A stretch of DNA of 64,000 bases. Origin: Eledone cirrhosa. Taxonomy: Eukaryota. The notes beneath the pieces are model-generated. The model was not told the origin of the DNA. It saw nothing but the letters and a program-made list of their open reading frames with translations, and did no database searches. Made by a program: the position numbers and the translations under genes. Location of the stretch: the NCBI GenBank assembly GCA_964016885.1, contig OZ024741.1, positions 160,890,001-160,954,000 of the forward strand, read 5' to 3'. Shown piece by piece: positions 7,891 to 58,416 of the stretch (position 1 is its first letter; each line of letters begins with the position of its first letter).

Positions 7891-8026
7891 TATTAATATT
7901 ATTATTATTATTCTCTACATTCCTTACATCAAACTAAAATATGCTGACAATCTTTCAATAATGTCTTCCTTATGAAATGTGTGGCCTTGTTTTGCTTAAC
8001 TAATGAATATATATATATATATATGT

Positions 8027-8150
8027 GAAGGCGTGTGGTTGAGCGGTTAGAGAATTGGATTCGCAATCGTAAGGTTGTGAGTTCGATTCCTGGACCAGGC
8101 GATGCGTTATGTCCTTGAGCAAGACACTTTATTTCACGTTGCTCCTTCTA
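8027..8150 (+). mobile_element. tRNA-derived SINE (CORE-like body)
   Basis: A-box TGGTTGAGCGG and B-box GAGTTCGATTC, followed by GTCCTTGAGCAAGACACTT. Confidence 0.8.
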
Positions 8151-11912: not shown

Positions 11913-12439
11913 AAACTATTTCTCACTGGGAACAATTTGTCAGCATTTTCTTTTCCTTTTACCAATATATATATCCTAAACGGACGTTAGTCCGTTTAGT
12001 AATATTGTTGTGGTCGTGTTTTCGTTGGCAATCGTCTGTTTACGACAGCACAGCGCGGCTCTACTTTATTTAACTGAGATAAAACTTATATGAGCATGAA
12101 CAGTAGATCATTACGCATCTTTTGGCTTAAAAATCTAGAAATTTGGTCCAGCGGGAAAAAGTTTATAATCAAAGTTTGCTGATAAATCTTGTGTTCAAGT
12201 GAGTGAGTAGTAATCGTGACGCTAGGGGAGGTAATCCAGAAATGACGTAGCTTTGTCATTAAGCCAGTTGCCTCAACTAGATTGCAATTATACTCAAAAG
12301 AACTTTAAAATGTCAATCACTTGTCAGTAATTCACTATGATCATTTAATTATTAGATAGTTGTTGCTTGCATTGCCTTAAAAAATAGTAGACCAGATAGA
12401 AAAATGCGTACAGCAAAAAAAAGTAATATTGTTGGAATA

Positions 12440-12540: not shown

Positions 12541-13033
12541 ATTTTACAATAATATTAGTGGCAGCCCCCCCTCCCGTTAGTTACGCCACTGGGTCTGACA
12601 TGGAATAAAAAAAAAATTTGAAATAAAAGTATACTATTGTGATTATTGTGCCTGGCAACAACAGGCTACTCAGGTAATTTATACATAGCAAGATTACACA
12701 CTGTATTTATATAGATATAACTTTATATATAAATTGTATATAATGAATAAAGATATATATGTGTGTGTGTGTGGGGTGGGTGGGGTGCACATGCGCATTC
12801 GTGTATGTGTGTGAGTATACATACACAAAGAGAGGCAGAAAGAGGAGAAGGGTGTGGTCTGGTTGTTATAACTACAGGTTTCACTTAACTATTGCGAGCT
12901 AGTGTTTCAGCTTGCGTGTTCCAGCTACTCGTTCAGGTTAAACTTAAGGTAGGTAGATTATTATTATTTTCTTTTTTATGTGTAGCGTTTTATTCACTGT
13001 TGTATAAATTACATTACAAATTGTTTATAATTC

Positions 13034-15836: not shown

Positions 15837-15912
15837 ATCACAGTTGTCGGTCGAGTTAACTCCAAGTAAAAATGTCAGAAAAGAAAAAGATTTGCGTAGT
15901 CATTGAGTACTG
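15837..15912 (+). CDS. Selenoprotein first coding exon (35 nt of 5' UTR, then MSEKKKICVVIEY + TG)
   Basis: Acceptor tttctgtttag|ATCA. ATG at 15872 in AAAAATG context. Donor TACTG|gtaaat splits the Cys codon (phase 2). Confidence 0.85.
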
Positions 15913-18351
15913 GTAAATATAACTATATATATATTTCTTTAAAAAAAAACCCAAACCTCAGGGCAACTGTCAGCTTTTTTTTCAATATCTTTCTTTTGTT
16001 AATGTACTTTTATTTGATTTTATATGTTTGTATTTTATCTATAAAAGTTGTTCAAATATGTTACGTAGAGAAGATCCATGTTAAAAATTTACCTTTGCAA
16101 CTATTGTATACTATTGACATTACCGTAATACTAAGTTGTTTTTGTTTAGTTCTAAGTTTTTGTTTAGTCCTTTACAAATGCATTCCCTCCAATCTCATCT
16201 TTTCTCAGGCATAATGTTGCTACAAACTTTGGAAAAGAAAAACGTAACAGACGTTATTTATCACAAGGCAAACAAATGCTAATCCTAAGTCCCCCTACTA
16301 CACACTGTAACATGGTTGGTCATAGGAAGAGCATCCAGCTGTGGAAAGATGGCCAGAGAGAGGTTTGTGGGGCCCCATCAGTTATGTTAAAATATGACAA
16401 CCTCACTAGTACTGGTACCATGATAAAATACAATTGGCAGAGCACAGGGCCATTTGTAAGTGAGATGCGAACTCCTGGCCTGTCTGGGAGTTCAGTAGAC
16501 CTGCTTCAGTACTGATTCGATTTGTGAAGACATGTCCAACTCTTGCTAGCAGTAAAAGTGGACATTAAATGATATATATATATACACATATATATGAGTA
16601 TATGTCTATATATATATATATATCATCGTCATCACCATCACCGTTTTATGTCCATTCTTCCACGCTAGCATGGGTTAGATGGGTTGTCCTGTTGTGGGTA
16701 GTGCCAGGTCGGGTGACCTTGACTTGCTCATACGGGAACTGATTTGGCTTGATTTCTACAACTGGATGCCCTTCCTAACACAAACCTCATTTACAGTGAG
16801 TGCTGGGTGCTTTTTTTCCGTGGCGCCTAGGCGACCACTTTACAGTGTGGGCTGGGAGCTTTTTAGCCGTGACACTTCCACAATATATATATGTATATAT
16901 ATCAGTTCAAGGTTCAATCGGGGGTAACCACAATTATTAAGGTACTCAATACATTAGTAGAGTGTAAACATCAAGTTTAATATGGAAATGGCTTCTACAG
17001 GGCTAGAACTGTTTCATTCAGAAGAAATCATCAATACCAATATATATAATCTCAATTTGCTAGACCAACTAAAATAAGTCTGTTTTACTCCTACAGTTCC
17101 CTGACCATGGTTTCTGGATTTCAAAAAACAACACTAACTATTCCAATACATTAGTCAGTCTAGCTCATATCCCCCCAAATTGAGATTTTGGCTTAAGTTT
17201 AATATATTTTATGTGTGCGTGTGTGTATAAAAATTTATATATCATCATCATTCATCATCATTTCATTTTACGTCCGCTTTTTCCCTGCTTGCAAGGGTGG
17301 GACGGGAACTGATTTTGGCTTGATTTCTACAGCTGGATGCCCTTCCTAACACCAACCTCATTTACAGTGAGTGCTGGGTGCTTTTTTGCCGTGGCACCTC
17401 CACGACCACTTTGCAGTGGAATGATATGGACCCCAGTCCCTATCATCTCATTTCTACAGCTGAGTAAACTGGAGCAATGTGAAATAAAGTGTCTTGCTCA
17501 AGGAAACAACACATCACCCAGTCTGAGAATTGAACTCACAACCTTTCGATTGCAAGGCCAATGCTCTAACCACTAAGCCATGTGCCTATATATATATATA
17601 TATGTATTTATATATATTTTTAATTATTACATATATATTTGTATATATATAAGTATATATTTGTGTGTATATATATATATATATGTATGTATGTATTTAT
17701 AAATAAAATACAGAGTTATTATAACTCATATTGATACCCGGCAATTAACAAGCTCAAAGTATAAATACTGAGCATTGAGTTCAAATCCCGCCAAGGTTAA
17801 CTTTGTCTTTCATTCTTATGGGGTCGATAAAATAAAGTACCAGTAATACACTGGGTAATTGCTAGCCTTGTGCCAAAAGTAGAAACAATTATATAATAAT
17901 ATATGTAGAAATAAACACAATTTTCAGGGCGAAACGGATTAAATCTCTAATCTGTCCGAGAGATGAAATGGTTTTTGATACGGTCAGTATAGAATTATAT
18001 CCTACTGTATGTTTAAGATTAAATATATAAAACATTTGTGGCATTTTCTACCCTTGTAATTTTAGACACGGAATTTACTGTGTTTATTTCTACATATATT
18101 ATTATATGTATTTATATATATTTTTTATTATTACATATATATTTGTATATATATAAGTATATGTTTGTGTGTGTATATATATATATAACTAATAAATAGT
18201 TTATCACTCTACATGGCTGAATACAATAAATCTAATCTGAGTTTTTTGAATATTAATAATAATATTCGATTTGTTTGCAATTATGCAAACAGCCTCTTTA
18301 AAGCCATGTCAGTAGAATGATCCCACAATTCTTGCTCTTGTGTTGGCATGT

Positions 18352-21400: not shown

Positions 21401-24400
21401 AGTAGTAAGTAGGGATGTGGACTGGGGGTCAAAATCACCGGAAGTCTCAACTGCTTCAGGATTGATCATAAATCTATTGGAGAGCAATTGATATTTTGAT
21501 AATTTTCCCTCTTTTGTCTGATGAGCAGCAAAGCCTAGGTTAGTTGTTAAATGAACCATGTTGCTGCTGAAGAAAGTGTCACACAATGTAACATCCCAGA
21601 TGAGGGGTTTATCACTGCAGAACAGGAAGATTATTAGGCTGTCTGGCCTTTTGCCATTCCCTTGGTTCAGCCCCACTGGCTCAAACTGGGAAAGGAAGCC
21701 TGCAGTGTTCTAGCCACGCTTTATGATCTCCAAAAATTGAAGATGGCAATGATGGAGAGAGAAGTGCTATGGACATCATGTCACATACATTGACAACCTG
21801 ATGTGGGATACTGGCCTGAAATCTACATACCAACTGAAGATGGTAATGATAGACAGAGAAGTGTGTAAAATAGACATTTTTTTGACCTGATGGCAGCTGG
21901 GCCTAACTAACTACTGTGTGAAAATAGAAATATAAAAAAAAGTGAAATAGAACAGTTACAAGAAAAAAAATAAACTGTATATTATATAGTTGGGGATAAT
22001 TAAAGAAGATCAACTAATTATGAATGTTAAAATGGTGTATCTGGTTCATAAGAGACACAATGTATCTTTACCTGTTGTAAGTTAGGACTAAAATGAAGAG
22101 CATCCGGTCATAAAACATTGTCTCAAAAAGGACCCCATGATGCATATGATTAAGCATATCACAGTCTATTACCACATTCTTCATAAAGTACACTACTTAT
22201 GATTTTCTATTACTTTTGAAAATTATTAAGAATTTGAAGGGATTAACATGGTACGTGAAACAATAAAATATTTCTTAAATAAAATTATGATGGAAGCTTT
22301 AAATTTAAATATGAATATTTAACATCAATAGCTTTGTATCATAGAACTAGGTGTCATTAGAACATTGGGTAGAGTGCTTTATGGTATTCATTCCAGCTCT
22401 CTGCTCTCTGAGATCAAGTGTAGCTGAAGTCAACTTTGCCTTTCTTCTTTTTGAGGTTGATAAAAAAAAGTATCAATCCAGTACTGGGGTCAATTCTTCC
22501 TCTTTATTTCTTACTCACTCCCTCTCTCTTACTCTCTCCTTTGGAAAAAATTGGCTGTGGGGAGGGGATGGATGTATATCACTACTGTGCTCCCACAACT
22601 ACACCAGGAGTCCATACATACATCATAGGACAATGTGTAGTTTCAAGAGGGCTAATATCAAGAGGGTAACTATGCTCCTTGATTTTATAGAAATTTAGAT
22701 TCTTTATGAAATCTAAACAAAGTAGGAACATTGAATATGAATAAATCTTTAATCTTTATCTCCTTTTCCTCATTTTACAAATTTGATATCTCAGTTTATC
22801 CCTAACTATCTTATCTAGCTATTTTTCTCACTGATTTTGTCTTATAGCCAAGGATGAGGTGGACAGCGAACGATGGAGTCACTTCGTGATGAAATCCTTA
22901 AAAATGTTTCTGAAGCCGAAGTAAAAACCATTGTTAGCAGTAGAAAAGGTATGATTTATTTTATTACATATGCATCATTTGACTATTCTTTCATTCTTTT
23001 ACTGGTTTCAGACATATGAGCAAATGTCACATTTAAAAATAGAAAGATATAACAGTGTCATGTGAAAATGTTTAATGGAATTACAGCTATTAGTTTGCAT
23101 ATAGAAAAACAGAGACATAACTATGTCATTTAGCCAGGCGGAAAGACCTAAAATGTACAAAGAAGAAATCTAGAGGCGTATTTTGTTTTTTAAATCAGCA
23201 GAATACTTGAATAAATATTTCTTACCACCATGTATACAAAATTGGGCTGATCGAATAAATTCAAAATTAAGGATACTGATTGGCAGTATCGGTAGAGCGT
23301 TGGATACCATGCTTTGAGGCATAGATTTATGGACCTTTACGTTCTGAGTTCAAATCCTGCTGAGGTTAGCTTTGCCTTTCATCCTTACGAGGACGATAAA
23401 ATAAAGCACCAGTAATGCACTGGGGTCAGTTTAATCGACTTTCCCCCTCCTGCTTCAAATTGCTGGCCTTGTGCCTAAAGTAGATACAATTATCTACCAT
23501 AGTTTGTGCATTAAACTATTTAAAGACAATGATCCACTGTCCATCCTTGTAAATATATATATGCGTGTAATCCCCTATATTTGTTTATCCAGGAATAAGA
23601 ATTAGTACACATGTACAGATATATTAATGTCCATTCATAATGACTTTCATGGATATGCACATGTTTGTGTATATTTGTATGGATATACACACATATACAC
23701 ACATTACTGCATGAATATGTACATAGTCATACATGTCCTCACATATATATGTGCTTACATGTGTGTTTATAGAGATGTGCAAAAATGTACAATATAAAAA
23801 ATATATAAAAAAAGAAGAATGTAAAGTCAAAGTTAAATATGATTGTTGTTTAGTGTTGCATCATGGCATATTTCATCTGCATTCTGTTATGGTGTATACT
23901 GCTCTTATCCATTTGGATATGATGCTGCTAGTTGTGAAATTGCCTCTGATTTTTTGTTTGAAATACATTTGTTCAAAATACAATTGGCAAAAATGGGGTT
24001 CCTCCGAAGGGTTTTTAGAGTAACGTTACTCAATAGAGTGCATAGTTTGGAGATCAGGGAGTCACTTCAGGTAGAGCTACTATTTAACTGAATTGAGAGA
24101 TCACAGCTCCGATACTATGGGTATGTGGTTAGAATGTCTCAGGAAAGAATCCCTGGACAGATTTTATGGGCAAAACCAACCGGCAGGAGACCCAGGGTTA
24201 GACTCCGAGCAAGATGGCTGGATAATATCTATGAGCTTGGCTGGTCTTGCTTGGGGATGGTTGGAGATGGTTGCTTCTGACAGGACCTGCTGAAAGGAGT
24301 GTTTGCAGACTCTGGTTTTGTTGCTGTTGTAAAATTTAGCTTGAGCCAGGATCTCCAAATGTAACCTATATTAGATGTTTCTATATTTCAAACTCCAGAT

Positions 24401-27400
24401 ATAGGCCAAAAGTGAGGTTATATTCTTTCTTATAGGATATTGAAATGAATAAGCATGTAAGTGTAAACATCATTCAAATCTATTGATTGTTAATCTTATG
24501 TAAGCCTCACTAATTGAAGATGTATCAACATTACATTTATAAACGATGTTATTAAATAAACATTTTGCTGCTAAAGGGCAGTTGTCCCTATTGATGCAAT
24601 TACAACTAGAACTAATTCCAGGATTGTCTCTATTTCTATGGTTAGATAGTTTGGCAATATTAGATGAGGTAATTTTATGTGTGAGGTTGGATGTAGTAAA
24701 GTATGATATTTTGACTGTGTTTCTATTGAATATTATGCTAGAGGGAAATGTTTCCTAATTAATGTAAGAAACATTTTAGCTATTGGTGTGGCCACCTCCA
24801 TAATATATGGTAGGTTCTACCATGTGATATGTATAATTCAATTTTCCTAATTCTATGCTCATATTTAGTGTATTCTACCTTTACTAGAAATCTGCTACTA
24901 GCCAGAGCTTCATTATTGTATGTGGAATGGTCAGTGAAAATTTGTTTGTTTGTTGATAAACTGGAAAGCCTCAGTGATACATTCTTGACTAGGTTTTTAG
25001 TTATACTGGTTGGATGGTTAGAAGATTTACTAATGTAATTTAAATACTTGTAGGGTTTTCTATATGGGTAATACAGGCGATTTGACATAAGGTGGCTGCA
25101 GCCTGATGATGTCTGTCTTCCCCATACCAGTAATTGGTATAAGTCGGTGGTCGATTTACCGAGAGGTGGGGACATAATTGATAGAACATGCATGATTTAG
25201 CTTACAGTGGTATGGTTTCGATGTCTGAGGTTGAGTGTAGTTGTATGGTTTATGTTTGCTTGGGTTTGAGGTTGGCATTGATTTAATCTAGATGTGTTTC
25301 AAGTTGGGGCAATCAATGGTTGTAGGCACAGACACACACACACATATATATAAAATAGTGTGTTATTCGAAGACTGCAACAATGCAAGATGGATGGTAGA
25401 TTTTGGAATAAATGGAAGACAATGAAGATATTGGTGTGTTGCCCCTCTCCCCTCCTTACATGGCATCTGAAGCATCTATGTTTTATTTTCTGCCAAATAT
25501 ATTGAATTGAATTGAATTCACCTGTTCTAATATTTCAGGTCTAAAAACCCTTCATCAGAAAACTATGAGAAACAGGCTCAGAGTTTTCTTACTTCTGTTG
25601 TTCAGAGGATTGCCATTTTTCCTTTGTTTGTTTACAATGATCTATTTATAGCTGCTGGAAAGAATGAGTGAGTGATGTCGTCTGTGAACTGACTTGTATA
25701 TAATGTGTGTGTAGGTGTGCATGTTCCTGTCAAATATTGTGTGCTTTTGTTAATTATTAATGTCAAATTTTTTAATGTAAATAATGTATCAAGTTGCAAT
25801 AGTTTGGATAATTTAGCGATTCTAGATTAAGTTATGTGTTAGGACTGTATATGAATGCATGTATATGTCAAATGTGTGTTTAGTTGTAATTGCCTGATAG
25901 AGTTGCCTATTACACATGTCTGTATTATGTCAGAGGTTATGTGTGGGTGCTTTTATGTTAAGTATTGCATGCTAAGTTCAAATCTGTTGTTGATTTGTGG
26001 GTTAAGCTTAGCTATTAATATTCCTTCTTTGATACTAAGGTTGCCTAAGTTGCACTCCTTGGCTTCAATAGTAACTATTATGACTTTGTTATTGTTTTTG
26101 CATTTGTCTAAGTATTTCCTGAAGGAGAATGTTCTTTAATGCAGATGGGAAGAGGTCTAATTGTACTACCGATGTAAAAGTCCCTGTATTTGTCACATTG
26201 AATGTGGTACATTAAATATGCTCAGTGGTACATACCTGTGTCATGAATGAGGCAGTTTGCCAGTGTGCATTGGCTGTTGTTGTCCCTGGATTGTTTTTTT
26301 TATAGGTGTCCTCATAGTAAAGTAGTAAAGGGCCAGAGTGGGCTAGTTGTATATCATACAATTAGCCCATTCCAGCCCGTCACACACACACACATGTCTA
26401 TATATATATGTATCATCATCATTTCATTTTACATCCACTTTTTTCCTGCTTGCAAGGGTGGGACGGGAACTGATTCTGGCTTGATTTCTACAGCTGGATG
26501 CCCTTCCTAACACCAACCTTATTTACAGTGAGTGCTGGGTGCGTTTTTGCCATGACACCTCCACGACCACTTTGCAGTGGAATGATAGGGACCCCAGTCC
26601 CTATCATCTCATTTCTACAGCTATATATATATATATATATCTGTTCCCTATTTGGTGAGCTGTTTAATATGTCGAGAGGCTGGACTGCTATTTCTAGTGG
26701 ACGAGAACCCTTTCATGTCATTGTGGATGCTAAATTCATATATTGATACCATGTGCATTTCGTCACTGTCAACCCTGAATTGACTGAGATTGGGTAATTT
26801 TAAAACTCCCTCACTGACGATCTGTTTCAAAATACCTAATTTCGCTGTTATTCGGTGAAATGTATTCTGATTTTATGGAGAATACATGCGAGGGAAATAT
26901 ATTGAACGTTATCAGGTATTTTGCTTTAACGTTTTATTAATTTTAATAAGATACTCAACGAATTATGTAATCTTACATTTAGTGCAGATTGTCTCTAGTT
27001 TTGAAGCTTTGATATATCTTAATGCACGCTTATGTGTGTATGAATATATTTCATTAACTTTCTTATAATGATATATATATATATAAAGTTAACTTGCCTA
27101 AGACTAAAGTTCTAGTATGTAGGAAGGAAAATAGGGCTCAGGTCCCCTCTGGGAAATGGCCATGCTCAGTGTGTAGGAAAGGAGTAGGCAGAAATTCCAT
27201 TTTATGTCCCAAATGCAAAGTATGGGTGCATAAAAGATGTAGTGGGATCACAGGTAAGCTATCTAAGAACGTAGATTTTATATGTGGCCGGTGCTCAGGT
27301 GCAATAAGTAGCAAGCGACCACAGGATACTAGCTCCTTCTATTGTCCAGATGGCTCTATAGAAATAGTGGATACCTTCCGTTACCTGGGAGACAAAATCA

Positions 27401-30317
27401 GCGGTGGAGGGTGCTCAGAAAGTACTGTAGCTAGAGTCAGAACGGGATGGAAAAAGTTCAGAGAGCTTATATCACTACTGGCCGCTAAAGGTTTCTCTCT
27501 AAAAATGAAAGGCAGACTGTATGATGCTTGCATACGAACAGCAATGTTACTTGGCAGTGAGACATGGGCATTGTGTGCAGAAGATCTACACAGACTGGAG
27601 AGGAACGAAGCTTGCATGCTCCGTTGGATGTGTAATAGTAATATACGTGAACGGCAAAGCATAAAGGAACTAAGTGAGAAATTAGGTATAAGAGGGATCA
27701 GATGCTGTTTACTCGAGAGAAGACTACCTTGGTATGGTCACCTGATGCGCATGAAAGACGACAGCTGTATAAAAAAGTGCAGGGTGATCAAAATTGACGG
27801 AAGTTACGGAGTAGGCAGACCCAGAAAAACCTAGGACGATTTGATAAATTCCGACCTTACACAGTTACACCTCTCTAAGACAATGTCGCTGGACCGAAAT
27901 CTTTGGCGCTATGCAGTAATACAGAAAACCCGCATTGTCTAAGTACAAAGCGAAACCTACAGTCAAATTTTCAGATTTTCATAATTATATTATTTAGGAA
28001 ATATTTTTTAATTCAATATATATGCAAAGATGATTAATTATGCATCATCTCATTTTTTAGGTGCTTTTGAAATCACTGTCAATGATACATTAGCCTTCTC
28101 TCGTATAGAGTCTGGAAATCACACTGATCATGATACAGTAAGTATTTTACATTTGAATTTACTTTTTATTATTTTCTGTTTTAAATGTGCATTTGAATCT
28201 AATATAATTTACCTCCTCCTCCTCCTCCTTCTTTTTCTTCTTTTTCTTTTTCTTTTTCACTGGATCCCCAAGTGTGGCCAGCCGAGCTCATGGATGTTAT
28301 CCAACCATCTTGCACAGAGTCTACCCCTGGGTCTTTGGTTTTGCCTGTAAATGCGATTCTTTCCTGAGGCATTCTAACCATATGCCCATAGTATTGGAAC
28401 TGTGATCTCTCAATTAGGAGAAGTAGTGGCTCTACTTGGAGTGACTCTCTGATCACTGAGCTACACACTTTATTGAGTAACATTACTCAAAAGTCACTTC
28501 AGAGGAACCCCATTTCAGCTGCTGTATTTGTAATTGTATTCTTTCAGTCATTACCCAAGATTCTCTACCTGCTTCAGTGGAACCCCATTCACATATAGCA
28601 TGCATTACACAGGCTTCCTTAAGAGGACGAGTGTCTCAGGTTTTGCAGCACTGATTTTTATTCCAGCAAACATATTAAGTGCAAGTCGAAGATCATCTTC
28701 TGTCGAGTTGTGTAACACCATGTTGTCTGCAAATTCCAGCCAACAGATTTTACACCCGCCAGTCATGATACCACATCCAATCCAGCTGCGCATGTCAATC
28801 CTCTTCAAGTAAATAATGAACAGGAGAGGTGACAATACACACTCTTGGCAGAGTCTGACTCTCACATTGAATAGCTGCGATTTAGCACTGTTTGCTCCTT
28901 CCTGTGGTCAGACTAAAGCAATTAGAGCAACTGTGCTAGAGAACATTTGGGATCCTCAACATCTGCTCACAAGAAACATAATGTAAGAACCTTAAACGTA
29001 TATGAATGTACTAAAATTCCAACATCAATCGATGCCAACCTCGAAATAGTGGTGACGACTAAAGAAAATGAAATATATTTAATAACAATCATAATATTCT
29101 AAATTTATCATGTTTCACAGCCATGATTTAATATATATTTATATGTGATGGGGCCTCCTCGATTATGTGTCCTTGAGCTGTAACTCATCTTAGCATATAT
29201 TTAAATCTGGTATTTATTATAATCAGCGAGTTCAAATCCCGCCGAGGTTAACTTTGCCTTTCATCCTTACGGGGTCGATAAAATAAAGTACCAGTAATGC
29301 ACTGGGTAATTGCTGGCCTTGTGCAAAAAGTAGAAACAATTATAGTCAGCTGTTCCTCAGAAAATCATCAGTTTATAGCTCAGTGAGCTATCTTGTTTAG
29401 ATAGAAATATCTGATACTACAATGAATTAAAAATAACAATACATAGAATGTGGGTCATCATGACTCAGCCAGCAGTGACAGGTATTAGTTGTATATATAT
29501 ATTACTGCACTTAACTAGAGGTGGTGAATTAGCAGAGTCATGAGAACAGTTGAATAGAATGCTTTGTGGTATTCATTCTGGCTCTCTGCTCTCAAATCCT
29601 GCTAAGGTCAACTTTGTTTTTCATCCTTTTGAGAACAATAAAGAAAGTAACAACCCATTACTGGGGTACATTCTTACTTTTTATCACCTTTTCACTTCTC
29701 TGTCACTCTCTCTCTCCTTCTCTGAAAGAAATAAGCTTTTTTTAAGACCTGGAAAGGGGATGGGTTCCACCAGATTTAAAAGGCTCAAGACATGCTGTAT
29801 GTCACTATGACACTCTTACTATTCTATCAGAATTTACAGGTCCATCCATACCTTATTCCACAAAACTATTGTTATGTCTTATAATATTTTGTAATGATCC
29901 TGTAAGGTTTTTCCTCTCTTTTCTATATAAATTATATTTATTTGTGTGCATTCTGTTAAAAATTAAACTTTTTCAATATCTTCATGTATAGTAAACTCAT
30001 ATTATAAAATACTCACAACTATGTATGTTTATTATGCATAAACATATTATATAGAGACACATATACAAAATATTTAAGAATTTAATAAAATCTTTTATTA
30101 TATATTTCAATGGAAGTATTTTTTCTCTTTTTCTGCAAGCAGGGAAAAGCGGACGTAAATTGAAAAAAAAAAAATGATTACAAACTCTTTAATAAGTGAC
30201 AAATACTTTGAAGAAATATTCAATTTTTGATATTTATTATAAATGTCTATTGTAGTACTTTTTTTCTTTTAACAGGTTATAAGTTTTTTACGTGGTATCC
30301 TGGCAGAAAATAACTAA
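15872..30317 (+). CDS. SELENOW2: Rdx-family selenoprotein (SelW2/MIEN1/SELENOW-like), 86 aa, 4 coding exons: join(15872-15912,22848-22948,28061-28137,30276-30317); Sec TGA at 22855-22857
   Basis: GT-AG exons with compatible phases (2,1,0) total 261 nt and give MSEKKKICVVIEYCQGUGGQRTMESLRDEILKNVSEAEVKTIVSSRKGAFEITVNDTLAFSRIESGNHTDHDTVISFLRGILAENN*. It has the IEYC-x-x-U and GAFEI.VN...FS Rdx motifs and a downstream SECIS. The exact orthologue name is tentative. Confidence 0.88.
16625..16880 (-). mobile_element. RTE-tailed SINE fragment with 48-bp internal unit
   Basis: (CAT)n tail, GCTAGCATGGGTTAGA, CTGGATGCCCTTCCTAAC and CAGTGAGTGCTGGGTGCTTTT. Confidence 0.7.
16990..17040 (-). ncRNA. Degenerate hammerhead motif (family shared with 50165-50216)
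   Basis: Minus strand reads TTGATGA-TTTC TTCT GAAT-GAAA-CAG...CTG-TA-GAAGCC. The first core base is C>T. Confidence 0.5.
17240..17587 (-). mobile_element. Full-length tRNA-derived SINE with RTE-type 3' tail
   Basis: Minus strand: GGCACATGGCTTAGTGGTTAGAGC (A-box), GAGTTCAATTC (B-box), CCTTGAGCAAGACACTT body, one 48-bp unit and the GCAAGCAGGGAAAAAGCGGAC...(GAT)n tail. Confidence 0.85.
18355..18438. repeat. Compound (CA)n(TA)n microsatellite
   Basis: Directly visible. Confidence 0.95.
18438..18645 (+). mobile_element. RTE 3' fragment (same family as 27090-27940)
   Basis: MRMKDDSCIKRCRALEVDGNCGVERPKMTWDEVIKADL. Confidence 0.8.
18964..19242. repeat. 48-bp minisatellite (~6 copies) amplified from a SINE-internal unit
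   Basis: Unit AGGTGTCACAACAAAAAGCACCCAGCCCACACTGTAAAGTGGTYGCRT, followed by the SINE tail GTTAGGAGGGGCATCCAGCT. Confidence 0.9.
19264..19383. repeat. Near-perfect 120-bp palindrome
   Basis: 59-bp arms with a 2-nt loop and about 2 mismatches. Confidence 0.9.
20267..20435. mobile_element. pogo/Tigger-like MITE
   Basis: TA|CTGTATTTCCTGGCATCAAAGATGC ... GCATCTTTGGCGCCAGGAAATACGA|TA, giving TIRs with a TA TSD. Confidence 0.75.
21290..21850 (-). mobile_element. CRE-like RLE 3' fragment
   Basis: GNGKRPDSLIIF..DKPLIWDVTLCDTF...KLSKYQ...PEAVETSG...WPFQCISLTIPHGN. Confidence 0.75.
22848..22948 (+). CDS. Selenoprotein exon containing the Sec codon (C|QGUGGQRTMESLRDEILKNVSEAEVKTIVSSRK|G)
   Basis: Acceptor ttttgtcttatag|C CAA GGA TGA GGT. 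Donor AAAG|gtatga. 101 nt, phase 2 to phase 1. Confidence 0.88.
23930..24300 (+). mobile_element. RTE (Expander/Rex3-like) 3' fragment
   Basis: MGFLRRVFRVTLLNRVHSLEIRESLQVE..IERSQLRYYGYVVRM...GRRPRVR..RWLD. Related copies at 28260-28900 (-) and 63440-63760 (+). Confidence 0.8.
24440..25330 (-). mobile_element. Penelope-like RT C-terminal/linker fragment
   Basis: YYPYRKP..LNYISKSSNHPTSITKNLVKNVSLRLSSLSTNKQIF, then CNCINRDNCPLAAKCL..NIVY (pre-GIY-YIG Cys motif). Confidence 0.8.
25500..26385 (-). mobile_element. Penelope-like 3' end: GIY-YIG remnant plus pLTR
   Basis: About 26130-26210 translates HIQCDKYRDFYIGSTIRPL..IKEH. A hammerhead lies at 25522-25563. Confidence 0.7.
25522..25563 (-). ncRNA. 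Minimal type I hammerhead ribozyme (Penelope pLTR)
   Basis: Minus strand reads GTTTT-CTGATGA-AGG GTTTTTAGA CCT-GAAA-TAT-TA-GAAC. Confidence 0.75.
27088..27940 (+). mobile_element. RTE LINE 3' part with an internal PHD-type zinc finger
   Basis: KTKVL...WPCSVCRKGVGRNSILCPKCKVWVHKRCSGI...FICGRC (C4HC3), FRYLGD, KGRLYDACIRTAMLLGSETW, WYGHLMRM and GRPRKT. Confidence 0.9.
28061..28137 (+). CDS. Selenoprotein exon (G|AFEITVNDTLAFSRIESGNHTDHDT)
   Basis: Acceptor ctcattttttag|GT GCT TTT GAA. Donor ACA|gtaagt. 77 nt, phase 1 to phase 0. Confidence 0.9.
28260..28900 (-). mobile_element. RTE (Expander-like) fragment
   Basis: LCQECVLSPLLFIIY...LEFADNMVL (RT) and IRESLQVEPLLLLIERSQ..YYGHMVRM. Confidence 0.8.
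30276..30317 (+). CDS. Selenoprotein last coding exon (VISFLRGILAENN*)
   Basis: Strong acceptor tttttttcttttaacag|GTT in phase 0. Encodes an amphipathic C-terminal helix. TAA at 30315-30317. Confidence 0.78.
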   Translation, partial: VISFLRGILAENN

Positions 30318-30838
30318 CTCAAGCTGTTCAACTCCATAAACTAATTTATCTACAAGAAACTGCTGCAATTATGTTAAAGCTTAAACACTCTGAAAATAAA
30401 TTTGCTTCTTCCTTTCTAAATTAATATATATACTCAGGACACAGATATACAGAATGAAAGAAAGAGGTAGTAAAAACCTGTGAGTTAAGGGTTGAAACAC
30501 TTGCATGAGATGATTTCTTCTCTGAAGACCTTCAGCTCTCCAGCTCTCTCTAGAGTTTCTTGCTACTTGCTTCTTTCTTTCTAAGTTAATATAAGACAGT
30601 ATATAGATAAATATACACAAAGAGGTATGAGTTCAATTATAAGGGATAGAACACATACCTCTATGTGTATTTTTCTCTATATACTGTCTTATAAAGAGCC
30701 AAGAATGTATTCCTTGAGCTCATTAAATTACAGGGGATTTACGTGAGTCTAACTCCGTTTTTTAATTTAATATATATATTAAAGGCCTTGACTACCATAT
30801 TTCTTATCTAAATCCTTATAGCATGATAAATACTGTGA

Positions 30839-31150
30839 GGACAGTGGATTGACAGTGTTATTAGAGCACTGGACAAAATGCTTTGTGGTATTTAGTTACA
30901 TCCTTTATATTCTGACTTCCAATCCTGTCATGGTCAACTTTGCCTTTCTTCCCTCAAGGTGTCAATAAAATAAAGTACCAGTAAAGTACTGGGATCAATA
31001 TAATCATCTTCCCATCTACAAATTGTTGCTTTGAGGGAAGAAAGGCAAAGTTAACTGTGACAGGATTGGAAGTCAGAACATAAAGGGATGTAACTAATTA
31101 TCGCAAAGCATTTTGTCCAATGCTCTAATAACGCTGTCAATCCACTGTCC
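30839..31150. mobile_element. Deu/Nin-like SINE plus inverted partial duplicate
   Basis: 30839-30957 is the imperfect reverse complement of 31031-31150. Confidence 0.85.
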
Positions 31151-31270
31151 TACCAGTATCTATTATAATAGGTGTAACGCTGTCAATCCACTGTCCTACC
31201 AGTATCTATTATAATAGGTGTAACGCTGTCAATCCACTGTCCTACCAGTATCTATTATAATAGGTGTAAC
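31129..31270. repeat. 3x perfect 46-bp tandem repeat
   Basis: Unit TAACGCTGTCAATCCACTGTCCTACCAGTATCTATTATAATAGGTG. Confidence 0.95.
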
Positions 31271-31964
31271 TTGGAAATTTCCATTCACTGCATCCTATAT
31301 GTTGTTCCTTTACTGTTCAACAGAAAAATATCACTCTACCAATGGTGTGTTCTGATTACAGTCTAATTTCATAATGAGCTTTTAATAGGGTTTACACATG
31401 TGTGTCTTTGTGGATGTGATGGGGGTCTCCTTTTTTTCTGTTCGTTTCTCACTTTCTCTTCTTTGCTTCTTTCTTTTCCCTCACTCACTTTCATTGATTC
31501 CTCCTACTTCCCCTCTATATATATCTTTATTTCTCCCTACACCCTCTTTCACTCAATATATCCTCTCTCCTTCTCTATATATATCCTTGTCTCTTTCTCA
31601 TTCAAATATCCTCTCTCTTTACTCCCTCATCCAATGTTTTTTCTCTCCCTCCTCACCCACTTTGGGGGTTTGTGAAAAAATAATGAGTTGGGGTCCCACA
31701 GGATTTGTCACTAGGGCTTGACAGTTCTTCATGATATTCTAAAGCTTCTATTTTTAAAAATGATAATTTCTTTAATAAGGAAAAAGTGTGTACACATATA
31801 GTCTTTCTATTATCCAATTTAAGAGGAATATTTGGGGTTTATATTTGGAAATTGATAGTCAAAGCTGAATTCTAATCTTCCAGTTCTTTCTCTGCATTAC
31901 AATTGTTAAACTAAAAAAAAACCCTCTTTATTGCTTGCTTTGAAACTTTTCACTTGGCTTTCTT

Positions 31965-32043
31965 ACTGGATATTTCTGTTGATGAAAACACTGATCTAAA
32001 CTTGTATCGATCAGAGTTGGATAAATTTTGTGGAATATCCAGT
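31965..32043 (+). promoter_or_regulatory. Eukaryotic SECIS element (type I)
   Basis: Helix I ACTGGATATTTC/GGAATATCCAGT. Core ATGAA (31982-86) / GGAT (32019-22). Helix II AACACTGATC/GATCAGAGTT. Apical loop T-AAA-CTTGTATC. Same strand as, and downstream of, the CxxU gene. Confidence 0.88.
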
Positions 32044-32989
32044 GAAAAACTTGACTGAAAAATATGTTTGGAAATTATATTTTAAAAAAATACTATTTTG
32101 TGTTTGAGTGTTGTTTTTTCAATGTTGTTTTTGTTCTACTTTCAATTACCATATTATACATTTATTTTTCTGTTTTGACATGGGTAGTATTCGTTTGTAA
32201 ATTTACATATCTTTACTTATAGAATTCCTTAGTGTTGATAAGTTTGTAAAAACCTTAGTTAATGATCTCAGGTTTTATTCCCTTTTGCAGCTATATTTAA
32301 TATAGTATATCATCACCATTACCATCATCATCATCATCACCATCTTAGGTCTATTTCCTTGTTTGCAGGGGTTAAATGGGTTGTCATGTTTTGTGGCTAG
32401 ACAGGTTAGATGACTCATGTTCCATTCTGGTATGGTTCCTATGATTGTATGCTCTCCCTAACACCAAACAGTTCATGGTGTGCACTGAGTGTATTTTATC
32501 ATGGTACAACCACTTTATAGAATGGTGTATTTTATTGTGGCTCTAGTGCTACCACTTTACTGCGTGGACTGATTGCAATTTATTGTGGCACAATTTATAT
32601 ATATATATGTGTATATATGTATAACTTTGATAGGTTTTAGCCAGTATTGGCCAAGGCCATGTCTAACTTTCTAGCACCATCTGGCAAAGTCTTTTAAATC
32701 ATACTTCACACTTTAGTCAGGCTTTGGACATGTTGGTGAAGACATATCTGGAATTTTTTTGAGGAATTTGTCCAGGGACCTTCTCTATTTTATGGGATTT
32801 TTTTTGTCTTGATGTATTTTTGTCTTTATACCAAATCTGGTTTCCCACTCCCTTAATGTTGTTCCCACGACAAAAAGCACTTTGTCCACCCAGTCTGGCA
32901 CCACAACAGCTAAAGAACCCAATCAATCTGTGTGTCATACTGATAACATGAAAAGAGGCAGCACCAAATGCACTCTATAAGATGATTAT

Positions 32990-35120: not shown

Positions 35121-38100
35121 CAATGGTTCCCAACCTTTTTTTAGCTCATGGCTCACTTTGAACCCAGAATCTTTATGTGGCCCATGAAATTATTATAGTG
35201 TAACAAATTTACTTCCATTTTACATAGAATATATCCAATAAAGATACAACTATGTCTATTTATTGGACACACAATTTCACAAGCATCTAAAATATTTCGC
35301 ATCTCCAATGAAACAACCATTTATTATCAATATTTATTTTTACAATTTTTCCTATCAAAAAAAAATTAAGACTTAAAGAACCAATTCTTTAGCTTCAAAA
35401 TATGAATAACTATAAGAAAGAAAATTGGTTTCAAATACATTTATTCAATGAGATTCTTGTCCCTGATGCGTCTTTGCAAGTTTTTCTATATTAGGATCAT
35501 GCTTGTCAAAGAGAGATGCAGATTTCCTCTTCTTATGATTTCTAAGCAATTTCTAGCTTTTGATAATAGTTGAGATGCTCCGCTAAATCCTGATTCTATT
35601 AGGTAAGTTGTTGGAAACATAGTCATATATAATTTAACTTTCTCCCAGAGCAATGGAAAATCAAATCTTCACCAATAGTATGCAGTTTTCCAGTTTTTGC
35701 TATTAGTTTTGAAATTTTACCAGCTGCGATTAAACCTTTGTCTTATTTATCCTGACATTTGCTAAATAATGAAGTAAGAGTGCTTCTTTGGAAATCATCA
35801 CATATTTTTTTGAAATAATCTAATGATTTGTCTTCTTATCCTTGTGCTTACTCTCCAGATGATATTTAAGCTTACTTGAGTGCATACTATCATTAGAAAG
35901 TTATGTCATACATAAGAGACACATTGGCTTTGTTATATTGTTTGGAGACTTTATAAAAGCGTATGCTAAAACCTCACGTGTATTGTCGACATGGTTTCTT
36001 CTTATCAGCCATGATAATCTGGTAATATATCAGGGAAAAAAAAAAAATAATTGATATCTACCTAATATCTAAATACATAATAATAATATTAATGAAATTA
36101 TTGTGTACAGTGCTCAGGTGCAGTACAACTCATCAAAGGTGCATGCATAGTACATAGAATAATGTACAAATGTCAGGAAAGTGAACACTGTATGAGTCAT
36201 GATATACATGTGTGCGTGTGTATCGAGTGGGGGATATCAGGTGTAGTATTGGCGAATCTCAGGAAGCATGGAGGTTTTAAAGGATGCAGTGTCTCGACAG
36301 CTAACATCTGATGCAGGTAGTTTGTCCCATGCTTCAGTAACTCTGAGTGTGAAAAAATGCTTCTGAAAGTCATGGGAGCTGTGCTGTTTTCTGATTTTGT
36401 AGGCATGCCCACATGTGTTAGACACATAGAATTCAAAAAGGTGCTCAGGGTTGTTGTTGACAAGATGGTTAATAGTTTTGTGGCTGCTTACCAAGTCAGT
36501 TTTCAGACATCGGAGCTTCAATGTATCCATGCCCAGGGGAGCAAGACATTCAGAGTATGGTAGATGCCCCTATTGGAGGTTATTTGCTTGGTTGCATGTC
36601 TCTGAACAGTTTCCAGGAGGTCAATGTTCTGAGCAAGATATGGGTTCCAGACTGGTGATGCAAATTCTAAGTGTGGCCACACCATAGCTATATACAGCTT
36701 TAAATAGATAGCTGGAGAGCGGCTGACAAAGTTCTTCCTGAGTAATGCCAAGACCCCCTCGGCCTTCTTGACAATTTTAGAGATGTGCTTTGTCCAAAGC
36801 AAATCACTGCTGATAGTAATGCCCATGCCACGTTCTCAAGAAGACTTCTTGATATTAGTGTTGTGGAGGGAGTGTGTGGACGCTGGGTTTTCCTCCCAAA
36901 ATGCATGGTGGTACACTTGTCCACATCCAGCTTGAGTTGCGAGTCTGTGATCCATTGTTGCAATGTGTCCAGGTCAGATTGCAGGAAAGATCTATAGTGT
37001 TCAGGATCTGTCCTTTTTATCTCAAAGTACAGATTGATGTCATCTGCATATTTCAGCACTGTGGCATTCTTTAAGTTATCATCTATGTCATTAATATATG
37101 CAACAAACAAAAGGGGACCAAGAACAGATCCCTGCAGTACGCCAGATAACATCTCATACGGTGACGAATGCTGTCCTAGAACCATACCACCTCCTTTTCG
37201 ACTGAGAATGAAGGACATCAACCAGTTAAAAAGATCATCCTTCACACCCATTGCAGAGAGTTTTACCATAAGTCTTTTGTGTGGCACAGAATTAAAAGCC
37301 TTAGTAAAGTCAAGGTAAACAACATCCACCCATGAGCTGCCATCAGTGATCCGGATGATGTCTTCAAGAAACTCGATAAGTTGATCACAGCAGCTGGAGT
37401 TAGGGATAAATCCAAATTGCGAGCGGCGGATCAGGCTGTGGAAATTCCAGAGTGTTTCTCTGACACAGGATTCCATCAGTTTGGCAATGCAGCTAGTAAG
37501 ACTGACTGGACGATAGTTGACAGGCAACGTACGGTCACCCTTTTTGAACAGAGGAATGAAACTGGCAGTTTTCCACTGCTCCGGAGTAGCACCATTGTTA
37601 AGACAAAATTGAAAGAATAGTGAAAGCTGGTGCAGAAGAAAGTACCCACCACGTTTGAGAAGCAGGTATGTAACACCATCTAGACCAGGAGAGGCATAGT
37701 TCTTAAGGTCACATCACAGCATTGCAGGTGTAAATTCCATAGTTGTTATAGAATTTGCAGAGGTGGTGGAGATAGTACGTTTTGGTTTTCATCAGTAAAA
37801 ATGTCTGCATAGCATTCAGCAATGAGTTCTGCGCATTCTTTGGGATCGTCAGTAATCTGGCTTGTGTGGGGATTGTGAAGAGGACCAGCTGGAGAGAGGT
37901 CTCTGCTTTGAATGTATATATTTCCAGAACACCTTACTGTCAGGGTTGGTTGCTATGCGCTGTTCAAATTCAAGCACTGCTTTTTTGTCAGATGATTGGA
38001 TGATTTATTGTGCTTTTTTCTATTGATATCTGATTTATGCAGTTTGTATTCCCATTCAGCATTATGACGTTCTTTCCTGGACTGCGGCAGTCTCCCAAAT

Positions 38101-40447: not shown

Positions 40448-40660
40448 GGCACTACAACGCTATTAGCTGTCAGTCGAAGCAGCCGATGAAAGCAAAACAT
40501 CGTTTATTTCCGTATTACTACCACGCGTAAGTGGAGTTACTTAAATGAAATTTTTTTTTCCCGCGTTTTTATTTTTTATTTTTATTAAAGCATATAGATG
40601 TAAGTGGAGTTACTTAAATGAAAATATAGGTGGCCCTTAAAATGGCCAAATTAGAATATA
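40448..40660 (+). mobile_element. Merlin-like MITE fragment (family of 58069-58416) truncating the Chapaev3 element
   Basis: GGCACTACAACGCTATTAGCTGTCAG terminus. Internal sequence matches the reverse complement of 58170-58416. Confidence 0.7.
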
Positions 40661-46482: not shown

Positions 46483-47095
46483 GATGATAGGACTGGGGTC
46501 CCTATCATTTCACCGAAAAGTGGTCGTGGAGGTGCCACGGCAAAAAAGCACCCAGCCCACACTGTAAAGTGGATGTGGAGGTGCCACGGGCAAAAAACAC
46601 CCAGCACTCACTGTAAATGAGGTTAGGAAGGACATCCAGCTGTAGAAATCAAGCCAGAATCAGTTCTTTATGAGCAAGACATGGTCACCTGACCTAACAT
46701 TGCCAACAATGAAAGGCACATGGCTCAGTGGTTAGAGTATTGGTTAGCTTGCAATTGAAAGGTTGTGAGTTTAATTCTCGGACCGGGTGATGTGTTGTTT
46801 ACTTGAGCAAGACACTTTATTTCACATTGCTCCAGTTTACTCAGCTGTAGAAATGAGATGATAGGACTGGGGTCCCTATCATTCCACTGCAAAGTGGTCG
46901 TGGAGGTGCTACGGCAAAAAAGCACCCAGCCCACACTGTAAAGTGGATGTGGAGGTGCCACGGGCAAAAAACACCCAGCACTCACTGTAAATGAGGTTAG
47001 GAAGGGCATCCAGCTGTAGAAATCAAGCCAGAATCAGTTCCCGTCCCACCCTTGCAAGCAGGGAAAAAGTGGACGTAAAATGAAATGATGATGAA
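46480..47095 (+). mobile_element. Composite SINE cluster (tRNA-SINE inserted into an RTE-tailed SINE)
   Basis: tRNA head at 46711 (GGCACATGGCTCAGTGGTTAGAG), CORE-like body, 48-bp units and RTE tail to 47095. Confidence 0.8.
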
Positions 47096-47484: not shown

Positions 47485-48075
47485 CATCATCATCATTTTA
47501 TGTCAGTTCTTCTTCGCTAGCATGGGTTGTCATGTTGTGGGCAGTGTCCGGTCGGCTGACCTTGTCTTGCTCATACGGGAAGTGATTCTGTCTTGATTTC
47601 TACAGCTGGATGCCCTTCCTAACACCAACTTCATTTATAGTGAGTGCTGGGTGTTTTTTTTTTTTGCCGTGGCACCTCCACGACCACTTTGCAGTGGAAT
47701 GATAGGGACCCCAGTCCTATCATCTCATTTCTACAGCTGAGTAAACTGGAGCAATGTGAAATAAAGTGTCTTGCTCAAGGAAACAACACATCCCCCGGTC
47801 CGAGAATTAAACTCACAACCTTTCAATTGCAAGCCCAATGCTCTAACCACTGAGCCATGTGCCTTCTATTGTTGGCAATGTTAGGTCAGGTGACCATGTC
47901 TTGCTCATAAAGAACTGATTCTGGCTTGATTTCTACAGCTGGATGCCCTTCCTAATGCCAAGCTCATTTACAGTGAGTACTGAGTGTTTTTTGTTGTGAT
48001 TCCTCCACGACTACTTTACAGTGTGGACTGGGTGTTTTTTACCGTGTCACCATCACGACCACTTTACAGTGTTTC
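47485..48075 (-). mobile_element. Inverted copy of the composite SINE cluster
   Basis: 47580-47985 is the reverse complement of about 46600-47040, including the same SINE-in-SINE junction. Confidence 0.8.
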
Positions 48076-50900: not shown

Positions 50901-53076
50901 CAAATAAAAAGTCAAGATTTGTTTCGATTTAACAGAGCAGAAAGAATTCGCGTCAGAATATTCCAACCAATCCAGCCTATATCAGCTGAATAAATATGTA
51001 TTGGAAATATATATATACACACCCACATGCACATATATATATACACACACACGCACGCACGCACACACTCAAACACACACACATACATACACGCATGCAT
51101 GCATACATGATGGCTGCCCCCTCGTTATCGAGTATGGCCATTGCACGATATATCATTATTAATAATTATTAATTAATTCTATCGTGCAATGCCTGTGCAT
51201 GAAGATATTTTTTTGAATGAGGAAAGACTGTGCACTGAGCCAATCCCACTCTCTGAGCGACAGTAGCTATAACCCGAAAAGAAGAAAATATCAACATCAT
51301 CGGTAACTACTGAGCCGCAGGTTTTATATCGGAGTTATCCCAGTTTCCTGAGTTGCCTTCTCCTAGAAGAATGCCCTGACAAAGGCTAGGGGTCCTTCAC
51401 TCCCAGTGGTTTAACTGCGCGATCGGGTGTCCAGCCCGATTATTTCTATGTCCCCGCGCATGTACATACACATGCACCCATGTATAAACACATATACATA
51501 TACATACATATGTACATGTGTATATACATATTTACACACTTTTGGATGGCCGTTGACTCTTATGAGATCTTCCGCCCTTTGTCAGGTTTTGTTTTTTGTC
51601 CTGCAGGGTGTCCAAAATCACCCTCCTCACCAAGTAAACTTGGTGGAGTTGCCGGTTTAGTCACCGACGACCCAACCATGCGACAGGTTGTACTGGGTTA
51701 CATGTTACCAGTAGCACTCAAGAGTGACCCGACATACATACCTACATACTACATGATAGCTGCAAACTCGTGTTCAAGTATTGCCATCGCCCAATAAAAT
51801 GTTCAAAAATGTGAAGCACAAATGTGACTCTTTAAACCAGCCAAATACTTACACCCTCTGGCACACACATGGCAACTTTAGGCTCCCCCGAAACCTTCCA
51901 TTGCTTTGTTCTGGCTGTATGTTCACATGTATCTTTTAAGACCTCCCATGCTTGTACATTTCTTACACCTTTTCAGATCATAATCTACATGAGGTCTACT
52001 GATATGACTTTGTTCATGTCTAATCAAACCAGCTTTGCTCAGGCTGACTAGACCACAGTGCTGGCAAACCAGATGATGTTCAACAGCAAGCAGTTCAGAA
52101 CAGTCTCAATCCTCACCTTCCTTTTCAGTGTTAGGTGTTCTCTCCGACGAGTTTCAAAGTATTCACCACCTGACTTGATCAAACGTTTCCACTTCACACG
52201 CTCGTCAGCCATTTCTCCCATTCGTCAGATGAAATTCCAGCACAAGCCAAGGTGCCCCTGATACAGTCCCGGTACCACCTTTTTGGTTTGTGTGGTGGTC
52301 GCCTTCCTTCACACAGTTCTCCATAGAGAAGTTGCTTTGGAATACGATCACCAGACATCCGGACCACGTGACTGCACCACCTCAACCAATACCGAAAGAT
52401 TATGCTCTCTATAGTCACGCACCTGCTCCGTTCTAGAACTTCCAAATCACTGGCGAACATTTTCCACCACACCCCAAGTAACTTATGAAGAGATTGTTGG
52501 TGAAATCTCTCCAGATCCTTGAGGTGCTTTCTGTATATGACCCACGTTTCACAAACATAAAGTAAAGAGGAGACGACACAAGTCAGATACACTTTCACCT
52601 TGGTTTCGATAGTGATACCTCGTCTGGACCATAAACGTTGATGCAGCCGTCCAAAAGCATCACTGGCTTTCTTGATTCTTAAGGATATTTCATTATCATG
52701 TGTGCATGAAGTGTTCAACGTACTACCAAGGTAAACAAACTTGTCAGCAACTTTTAGCCTCTTTCCGTACACGTACACACTTGGTGCAGTGTACTCGTTT
52801 CCAGGTACTGGCTGATACATCACAACAGTCTTTTCCAAGCTTATTGTGACGCCCAAAGTGCTGCAAGCTGCAGAAAAAGAGTTCATAATATGCTGTATGT
52901 CACTTTGTGAGTGTGCAAAAAGATAGCAGTCGTCTGCATACAAAAAACTCTCGGATTATAGATGATAATACCTTTGTGCTTGTATCAAAGCGCCTGATGT
53001 TGAATAACCTTCCTGAAGTGCGATACCTGATGTAAACCCCATAAGAACAATATTTGAATGCCATGGGAAACACTAT

Positions 53077-58068: not shown

Positions 58069-58416
58069 GGCACTACAACGCTATTAGCTGTCATATTTGT
58101 TGGTGAAAAAAATTTGATTATAAAACTTAAATTTATGAATTACTTGTTTTCTAATTAACTTAAATTTGTTTTCTAATTTGGCCCTTTTAAGGGCCACCTA
58201 TATTTTCATTTAAGTAACTCCACTTACATCGATATGCTTTATAACCATGACTTGTTTTCTATTTGTTTTCTTTAAGTCTTCCCTCTCTCTCTAAAAAAAA
58301 AAACACGTGAAAACTCCACTTACGCGTGGTAGTAATACGGAAATAAACGATGTTGACGAGTGGCGTCACCTTCGCCTGTTTTCCACTGGACTGACAGCTA
58401 ATAGCGTTGTAGTGCC
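58069..58416. mobile_element. Merlin-like MITE
   Basis: TIRs GGCACTACAACGCTATTAGCTGTCA / TGACAGCTAATAGCGTTGTAGTGCC. No clean TSD. Confidence 0.7.

Follow-up and report, generated by a model that had tools for sequence, protein, structure and literature searches.

A very probable type I SECIS element and the small Rdx-like selenoprotein gene that it would serve in Eledone cirrhosa

Type 1 SECIS elements, examples of which are found in human GPX1, GPX2, SELENON, DIO1 and SELENOV, contain tandem G·A pairs that are similar to a kink-turn and required for the binding of SBP2; helix II spaces the AAA of the loop, and the strength of recoding is also set by helix II and the internal loop (PMC2761289, from the portion of the text available). 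In 65% of the human SECIS elements a U is located three bases before the AUGA (PMC2761289). As far as the accessible part of the account extends, mammalian SELENOW is encoded by five coding exons and has its SECIS in a separate sixth exon (PMC3316567). Invertebrate genes of the SELENOW2/MIEN1 group have been placed in the SELENOW2 branch, again according to the accessible part of the paper (PMC13134290). A search for literature on such a gene in cephalopods or molluscs revealed none among the papers listed, which is weak evidence in view of the limited coverage.

The hairpin at 31965-32043 of the window, by which we mean the whole stretch of 64,000 nucleotides that was analysed, is very probably a working type I SECIS situated in the last exon of an 86-residue, four-coding-exon selenoprotein gene that likely belongs to the Rdx family (SELENOW/SELENOW2/MIEN1-like). 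A previous sequence-only reading had described a 12-bp helix I, an AUGAA/GGAU core, a 10-bp helix II with one A-A mismatch and an AAA loop. This description was confirmed by a pair table of the forward strand, which places every structural element as follows:

31965-31976 with 32032-32043, forward strand: helix I, 11 Watson-Crick pairs and one U·G; extended outward it reaches 14 bp
31977-31982 (6 nt) and 32023-32031 (9 nt), forward strand: internal loop, from the pair table
31982-31986, forward strand: AUGAA, 5' side of the core, from the pair table and aligned to the AUGA of Rfam SECIS_1
32019-32022, forward strand: GGAU, 3' side of the core, from the pair table and the Rfam SECIS_1 alignment
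U31983·U32022, G31984·A32021, A31985·G32020 and A31986·G32019, forward strand: non-Watson-Crick quartet, from the pair table
31987-31996 with 32009-32018, forward strand: helix II, 10 steps made up of 9 pairs and the A31990·A32015 mismatch
31997-32008 (12 nt), forward strand: apical loop of type I geometry, the AAA occupying 31998-32000

All consensus features of the type 1 elements, to the extent that they are given in the available part of PMC2761289, are present: the AUGA/GA tandem core, the AAA in an open loop and the position in the 3' UTR. Helix II and the quartet together make up 14 steps, as in type 1 elements, helix I closes the internal loop and the AAA lies 12 nt 3' of the core UGA. 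The U three bases before the AUGA is shared with the human elements. Helix II starts with two A-U pairs, so that, if the assumed numbering holds, the element seems to lack the G-C pair that has been associated with weak recoding. Unlike the type 1 examples, the Eledone element is AU-rich, has a long helix I of 12-14 bp and scores below the Rfam SECIS_1 cut-off. The 12-nt apical loop is predicted to be open and free of a mini-helix in both the minimum-energy and the centroid fold, which assigns the hairpin to type 1 rather than to type 2.

Folding of 31955-32055 with ViennaRNA yielded -26.1 kcal/mol with a z-score of -3.99, and none of 200 shuffled sequences was equally stable. Folding models that lack sheared G·A pairs are expected to mispair a SECIS core; ViennaRNA indeed pairs the core region otherwise, and keeping the core unpaired costs 1.3 kcal/mol. 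Both in a local context and when pairs are restricted to a span of 150 or 300 nt, helix I is paired with a mean probability of 0.99 and helix II with one of 0.91. The value for helix I is 0.73 when 31600-32150 is folded and drops to 0.06 in the unrestricted fold of the whole 1,783-nt UTR, in which helix I is displaced. Enforcing the SECIS in the fold of this approximately 1.8-kb UTR is penalized by only 2.4 of 538 kcal/mol. An alternative in which the SECIS arms pair over a long range, with 31547-31563 and 30333-30352, is better by the same 2.4 kcal/mol in the 1.8-kb fold and was rejected as lying within the error of the model.

The frequency with which such a hairpin arises by chance was estimated with a pattern scan that required RUGA, AA 11-13 nt further on, GA on the opposite side and at least 9 of 10 helix II pairs, and that recorded the longest helix I. 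Since the pattern was composed with the element already in view, the shuffle rates are somewhat favourable to it. On both strands of the window the scan found two matches, that at 31965-32043 with a helix I of 14 and another at 3231 with a helix I of 4; the latter (3231-3288) was rejected as a SECIS because of its 4-bp helix I and a fold that is not SECIS-like. The 300 dinucleotide-shuffled windows contained 179 matches in total, 13 of them with a helix I of at least 8 bp and none with one of at least 12 bp. When 30318-32300 was shuffled 5,000 times, 24 shuffles gave any match and none a helix I of at least 8. A smaller run of 30 shuffles agreed with these larger tests. The hairpin is the only strong match in the window; it has the orientation of a gene with an in-frame UGA and follows the stop codon of this gene.

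Scoring with the Rfam model SECIS_1 (RF00031) was less favourable. In E-value mode, the hairpin was the best of three matches in 31400-32600, with 21.3 bits and an E-value of 0.33, which is under the gathering score of 35 bits; the other two, a T-box (E 3.7) and snoR127 (E 9.1), were dismissed as chance. Accordingly, the scan of the whole window at gathering thresholds did not list a SECIS and returned tRNA-like and Histone3 matches only. A low score with a SECIS model had been named beforehand as an outcome that speaks against the element, and 21.3 bits is low. We weigh it lightly because the alignment brings the right core and the AAA into place (AUGA, AAA and GA are in register) and its uncertainty is confined to the apical part and the 3' loop; the model carries an extra small helix in the apical part. 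As regards orthologues, a 21-nt piece had no matches among metagenome contigs.

Evidence on the gene and its transcripts came from four sequencing runs of one organism and one study, X1-X3 from one sample and X4 from another, the contigs of which were mapped on 22700-32900. In X1-X3, unspliced contigs continue through the introns. X4 contains two joints with GT..AG borders that are absent from X1-X3, one from 22948 to 28061 at a depth of 4990 and one from 28137 to 30276 at a depth of 3911. Because these two splice joints occur in X4 and neither of them in X1-X3, X4 is taken as RNA and X1-X3 as DNA, an assignment that we infer from the joints since X4 is not on record as RNA. The gene model has four coding exons on the forward strand, with GT-AG borders throughout and a frame of 261 nt (86 codons and TAA):

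15872-15912, forward strand: coding part of exon 1, from the ATG to a phase-2 donor with GT at 15913; its last two bases are positions 1 and 2 of the Cys codon in CxxU
22848-22948, forward strand: exon 2, containing the in-frame TGA; AG/GT borders and joint to 28061
22855-22857, forward strand: UGA, the proposed Sec codon, residue 17 and U of C-Q-G-U in the spliced frame
28061-28137, forward strand: exon 3, C-terminal Rdx segment; Pfam Rdx match and joint to 30276
30276-30317, forward strand: coding part of exon 4 with TAA at 30315-30317; from the gene model and the X4 contig 30276-30626

The likely start of exon 1 is given by an AG acceptor, either that at 15837 or that at 15844. In X4, a loose end of 106 nt is attached at 22847, and its displayed letters are those of the 3' end of exon 1; no such end is listed for X1-X3. 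Since 106 nt exceeds the length of exon 1 counted from either AG (69 or 76 nt), a further exon should exist on the 5' side. One candidate 5' exon lies at 11980-12215, where a strong donor-like site near 12199 follows a CpG-richer stretch.

TGA 22855-22857 is the only internal stop in the frame. It is located three residues after a Cys, forming the motif C14-Q-G-U17, and is followed by 69 sense codons across two spliced introns. Letters deviating from the reference at 22855-22857 were absent from the X1 contig over 22700-23307 and from the rows listed for any run. The proposal that the hairpin serves this TGA is well supported by the spliced frame, which remains open across two GT-AG introns, by the position of codon 17 in CxxU, by the X4 joints and by X4 contigs over parts of the UTR and over 32015 within the SECIS.

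The relationship of the protein was sought with single exons. Exon 3 alone matched Pfam Rdx (PF10262) at profile positions 43-65 of 74 with an E-value of 0.016 and 15.8 bits (cut-off 22.6), and PDB 2ljk (human C17orf37/MIEN1) with an E-value of 0.91; its three nearest Atlas clusters, which serve as a lead only, were Rdx at 0.82-0.84. Each of these matches is below threshold, and they agree with one another and with the CxxU motif. Exon 2 alone matched no Pfam family, and its single PDB match (E 1.6) was unrelated. Protein searches with single-exon queries found no relative, a blank that such short queries make weak, and a match to a 680-aa protein in nine stretches (E 2.7e-4) was judged spurious. 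From the weak single-exon matches together with the CxxU motif, the gene likely belongs to the Rdx family. When the spliced model was compared with the window by tblastn, nothing better than E 2.0 appeared beyond the four exons, hence no further paralogue exons; one of the two matches at E 2.0 is an orphan exon at 12599-12673 that is discussed below.

Downstream of the stop codon, the X4 pieces listed cover 30276-30626, 30710-30828, 31242-31794 and 31826-31942, and one further contig of depth 442 extends over 32015. Three of the intronic X4 pieces listed have a depth of 2-6 and the fourth, with five differences, 29. Comparison of the exonic with the intronic pieces suggests that the SECIS sits in the last exon. 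No single piece among those listed in X4 spans the distance from the stop to the SECIS, nor was a contig found in that run that joins the coding exons to the SECIS; we infer that the last exon is one continuous stretch from stop to SECIS. The X4 contig depth falls from 3,356 (31826-31942) to 442 (over 32015) and is 8.8 in the bin 32248-32588, the bin total allowing for about 81 nt at a depth of 442 beyond 31942; contig depth can neither rank parts of a gene nor locate the end of an RNA, and the drop is used neither for nor against a transcript end before 31965.

The sequence-only reading had placed the SECIS far down a TE-filled 3' region. The 3' UTR is composed as follows:

30318-31964, forward strand: 3' UTR from the stop to the SECIS, 1,647 nt, partly repeat-derived
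30456-30577 and 30579-30705, forward strand: two predicted long hairpins, the arms of the second complementary at 49 of 60 positions
30823-31166, forward strand: inverted pair of a dispersed repeat with a predicted 135-bp stem, the arms complementary at 127 of 144 positions

From the UGA to the SECIS the genomic distance is 9,107 nt, most of it contributed by two introns, and the spliced distance (to the AUGA) is 1,874 nt. Since mammalian UGA-to-SECIS distances range from 207 to 5,207 nt with a mean of 872 (PMC3316567), the position is not unusual, and the claim of remoteness is misleading. Of the UTR that precedes the SECIS, about 31% is covered by blast self-matches within the window, and the introns are repeat-rich, as revealed by the depth bins and a retroelement frame at 27058-27834. 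The same reading had assigned the hairpin to a small non-repetitive island, and this was upheld. No blast self-match in the window overlaps 31271-32506, so that the SECIS lies within approximately 1 kb of single-copy-like sequence, and the depth of the DNA-like runs is 19-37 in the bins 31225-32247 as opposed to thousands to millions in repeats. A perfect 46-bp tandem repeat of 3.1 copies occupies 31129-31270 and overlaps the end of the inverted repeat of the UTR. On the other side of the SECIS, 32044-32260 contains an A-run at about 32084, beyond which the sequence becomes rich in U.

The region 30450-31300 folds with a z-score of -26.6, and roughly 600 nt of 30456-31166 are contained in the three long hairpins. 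On the basis of this predicted structure, 30456-31166 is likely a substrate of ADAR; read depth over it is swamped by other copies of the repeat, which masks any editing there. One A-to-G difference was observed within the SECIS itself. At 32015, the 3' member of the mismatched A·A pair, X4 has G in one contig (442.1/442.1), 34 letters from the contig end, whereas A is found in X1-X3 (G in 0 of 10.8, 14.6 and 6.4) and in the window. The predicted change in stability caused by A>G is 0.4 kcal/mol. We regard an allele as the somewhat favoured explanation, A-to-I editing as a possible but clearly less probable one, and an artefact as less probable again. Consistent with editing are the change from A to G on the sense strand inside a helix, the agreement of three DNA-like runs on A and the long predicted stems of the UTR, one of 135 bp. 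In addition, most editing in octopus occurs in introns and 3' UTRs, according to the available part of PMC9699675. Against this stand the origin of X4 from a different sample and the isolation of the site, the other four A>G places of X4 all being in intronic repeats. A further difference, the kind of which is not listed, is present in the X4 piece 30276-30626. These contigs collapse alleles, moreover, as shown by differing letters at 23121 and 23175 between the DNA-like runs. A G as 5' neighbour and an opposing A, both present at 32015, form a poor context for ADAR. The depth pattern over the SECIS leaves room for a contig with A that was removed by filtering, in which case the G form may be a minority one.

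The closest described cases are those of SELENON and of octopus 3' UTRs (PMC9076623 and PMC9699675, each in the portion available), with which 32015 shares an A-to-G change, a difference between DNA-like and RNA-like runs and a paired region, in the 3' UTR of a selenoprotein mRNA with long inverted repeats. In SELENON transcripts, as far as the accessible part of PMC9076623 reports, the editing affects an Alu splice site and not the SECIS. The Eledone difference is also unlike SELENON editing in being a single site in one contig of another sample, for which an allele is possible. No report of editing within a SECIS was found in titles and the beginnings of abstracts, a search outside of which most subscription papers lie. 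It is conceivable, albeit improbable, that editing in helix II, assisted by the inverted repeat with its 135-bp stem some 800 nt 5' of the site, converts A·A to A·I and tunes Sec insertion; even if 32015 were edited, an effect on recoding would be the less likely outcome, although one to be reckoned with. Such an effect would tie ADAR activity directly to the output of a selenoprotein.

A rival reading concerns the share of transcripts that carry the SECIS. Canonical poly(A) signals are located 5' of the SECIS at 30395, 30722, 30778 and 30964, and neither AATAAA nor ATTAAA follows downstream of it before 33342. On this reading most transcripts end upstream (for example near the A-run 31913-31922 or the AATAAA at 30395 or 30964), with a real SECIS contained in only some of them. 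Translation of those lacking it would terminate at the UGA, nonsense-mediated decay would remove them, and the choice of the 3' end would determine the output of the selenoprotein. We consider this very unlikely in view of the X4 pieces that extend beyond all four signals up to 31942 and of the contig across 32015.

Less likely still is a dead or decaying Rdx gene in which the UGA is a true stop and the hairpin a relic or a chance structure. The low Rfam score would fit such a gene, as would the orphan exon, a second, broken Rdx-like exon that suggests decay at the locus. It resembles a first exon, is located at 12599-12673 on the forward strand, 3.2 kb upstream of the ATG of the gene and outside the stretch covered by the read mapping (22700-32900), contains CxxC (Y-C-D-Y-C) and is followed by a GT donor at 12674. 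It matched Pfam Rdx at profile positions 1-19 (E 0.033) and the SelW-related protein PDB 2p0g (E 0.37). Its ATG at 12600 lies in another frame, which closes at a stop two codons on, and no partner exons turned up when the window was compared with the spliced model by tblastn. The orphan exon may have remained from a Cys paralogue, belong to a UTR or result from an error in the assembly. Decay of the four-exon gene itself is contradicted by the sole internal stop, which falls exactly on the CxxU position and is succeeded by 69 sense codons over two spliced introns, and by a hairpin in which every core feature is preserved and which shuffling did not reproduce. Hardly to be considered is bypass of the UGA by A-to-I editing to UGG (Trp), with no Sec insertion and no involvement of the hairpin: editing is common in cephalopods, but 22857 is not among the five A>G places of X4, the redox motif would not survive a Trp and a full SECIS is present.

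Broken retroelement frames elsewhere in the window were taken from the frame list:

10031-11910, reverse strand: upstream of the gene, with reverse transcriptase and GIY-YIG-like pieces (by eye)
27058-27834, forward strand: in intron 2, an RT/PHD-type piece (by its sequence matches)
36700-37713, reverse strand: LINE-like (by eye)
52194-52955, reverse strand: LINE-like (by eye)

The frame at 27058-27834 had 31 matches, among which one was to a named eukaryote, Octopus vulgaris, with 60% identity over 57% of the query; the repeats of the window presumably resemble those of octopus. The tRNA-like Rfam match at 17519-17582 (reverse strand, 29.9 bits) forms the head of a dispersed repeat (by eye), with similar copies near 8025-8090, 46720-46780 and 47780-47840, and is probably a tRNA-derived SINE rather than a tRNA gene. 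The Histone3 stem-loop at 58175-58219 reached exactly the gathering score and has a reverse copy at 40608-40652, identical at 44 of 45 positions. It was rejected as the end of a histone mRNA; it looks rather like a repeat end in inverted orientation, and no histone-like frame occurs among the frames of at least 130 aa.

To our knowledge, every eukaryotic selenoprotein gene has a SECIS. From established knowledge, the tandem G·A/A·G core of the Eledone hairpin would form a kink-turn that binds a protein of the SBP2 type, and SBP2 together with eEFSec and Sec-tRNA would cause the UGA of codon 17 to be read as Sec. The Sec residue would complete the CxxU motif of a thioredoxin-like redox protein of the SELENOW/SELENOW2/MIEN1 group. 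The UGA is located 91 nt before the next exon junction, beyond which there is another, and an mRNA on which recoding fails should become subject to nonsense-mediated decay. Standard annotation pipelines tend to truncate small selenoprotein genes at the UGA. The gain is one of annotation: the structure of a small selenoprotein gene is fixed, and one more invertebrate SelW-like gene is provided with its SECIS. The element is ordinary in kind and leaves ideas on Sec insertion unchanged.

Among the described selenoproteins, the predicted product resembles the SELENOW/SELENOW2/MIEN1 (Rdx12) branch, as outlined in the accessible parts of PMC3316567 and PMC13134290, in being a small protein with an N-terminal CxxU, which here reads C-Q-G-U. 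It resembles MIEN1 in its C-terminal segment, which fits positions 43-65 of the Rdx profile and human C17orf37/MIEN1 weakly, below threshold. It differs from mammalian SELENOW in its gene structure, since the Eledone gene has four coding exons and its stop codon and SECIS are apparently contained in one exon.
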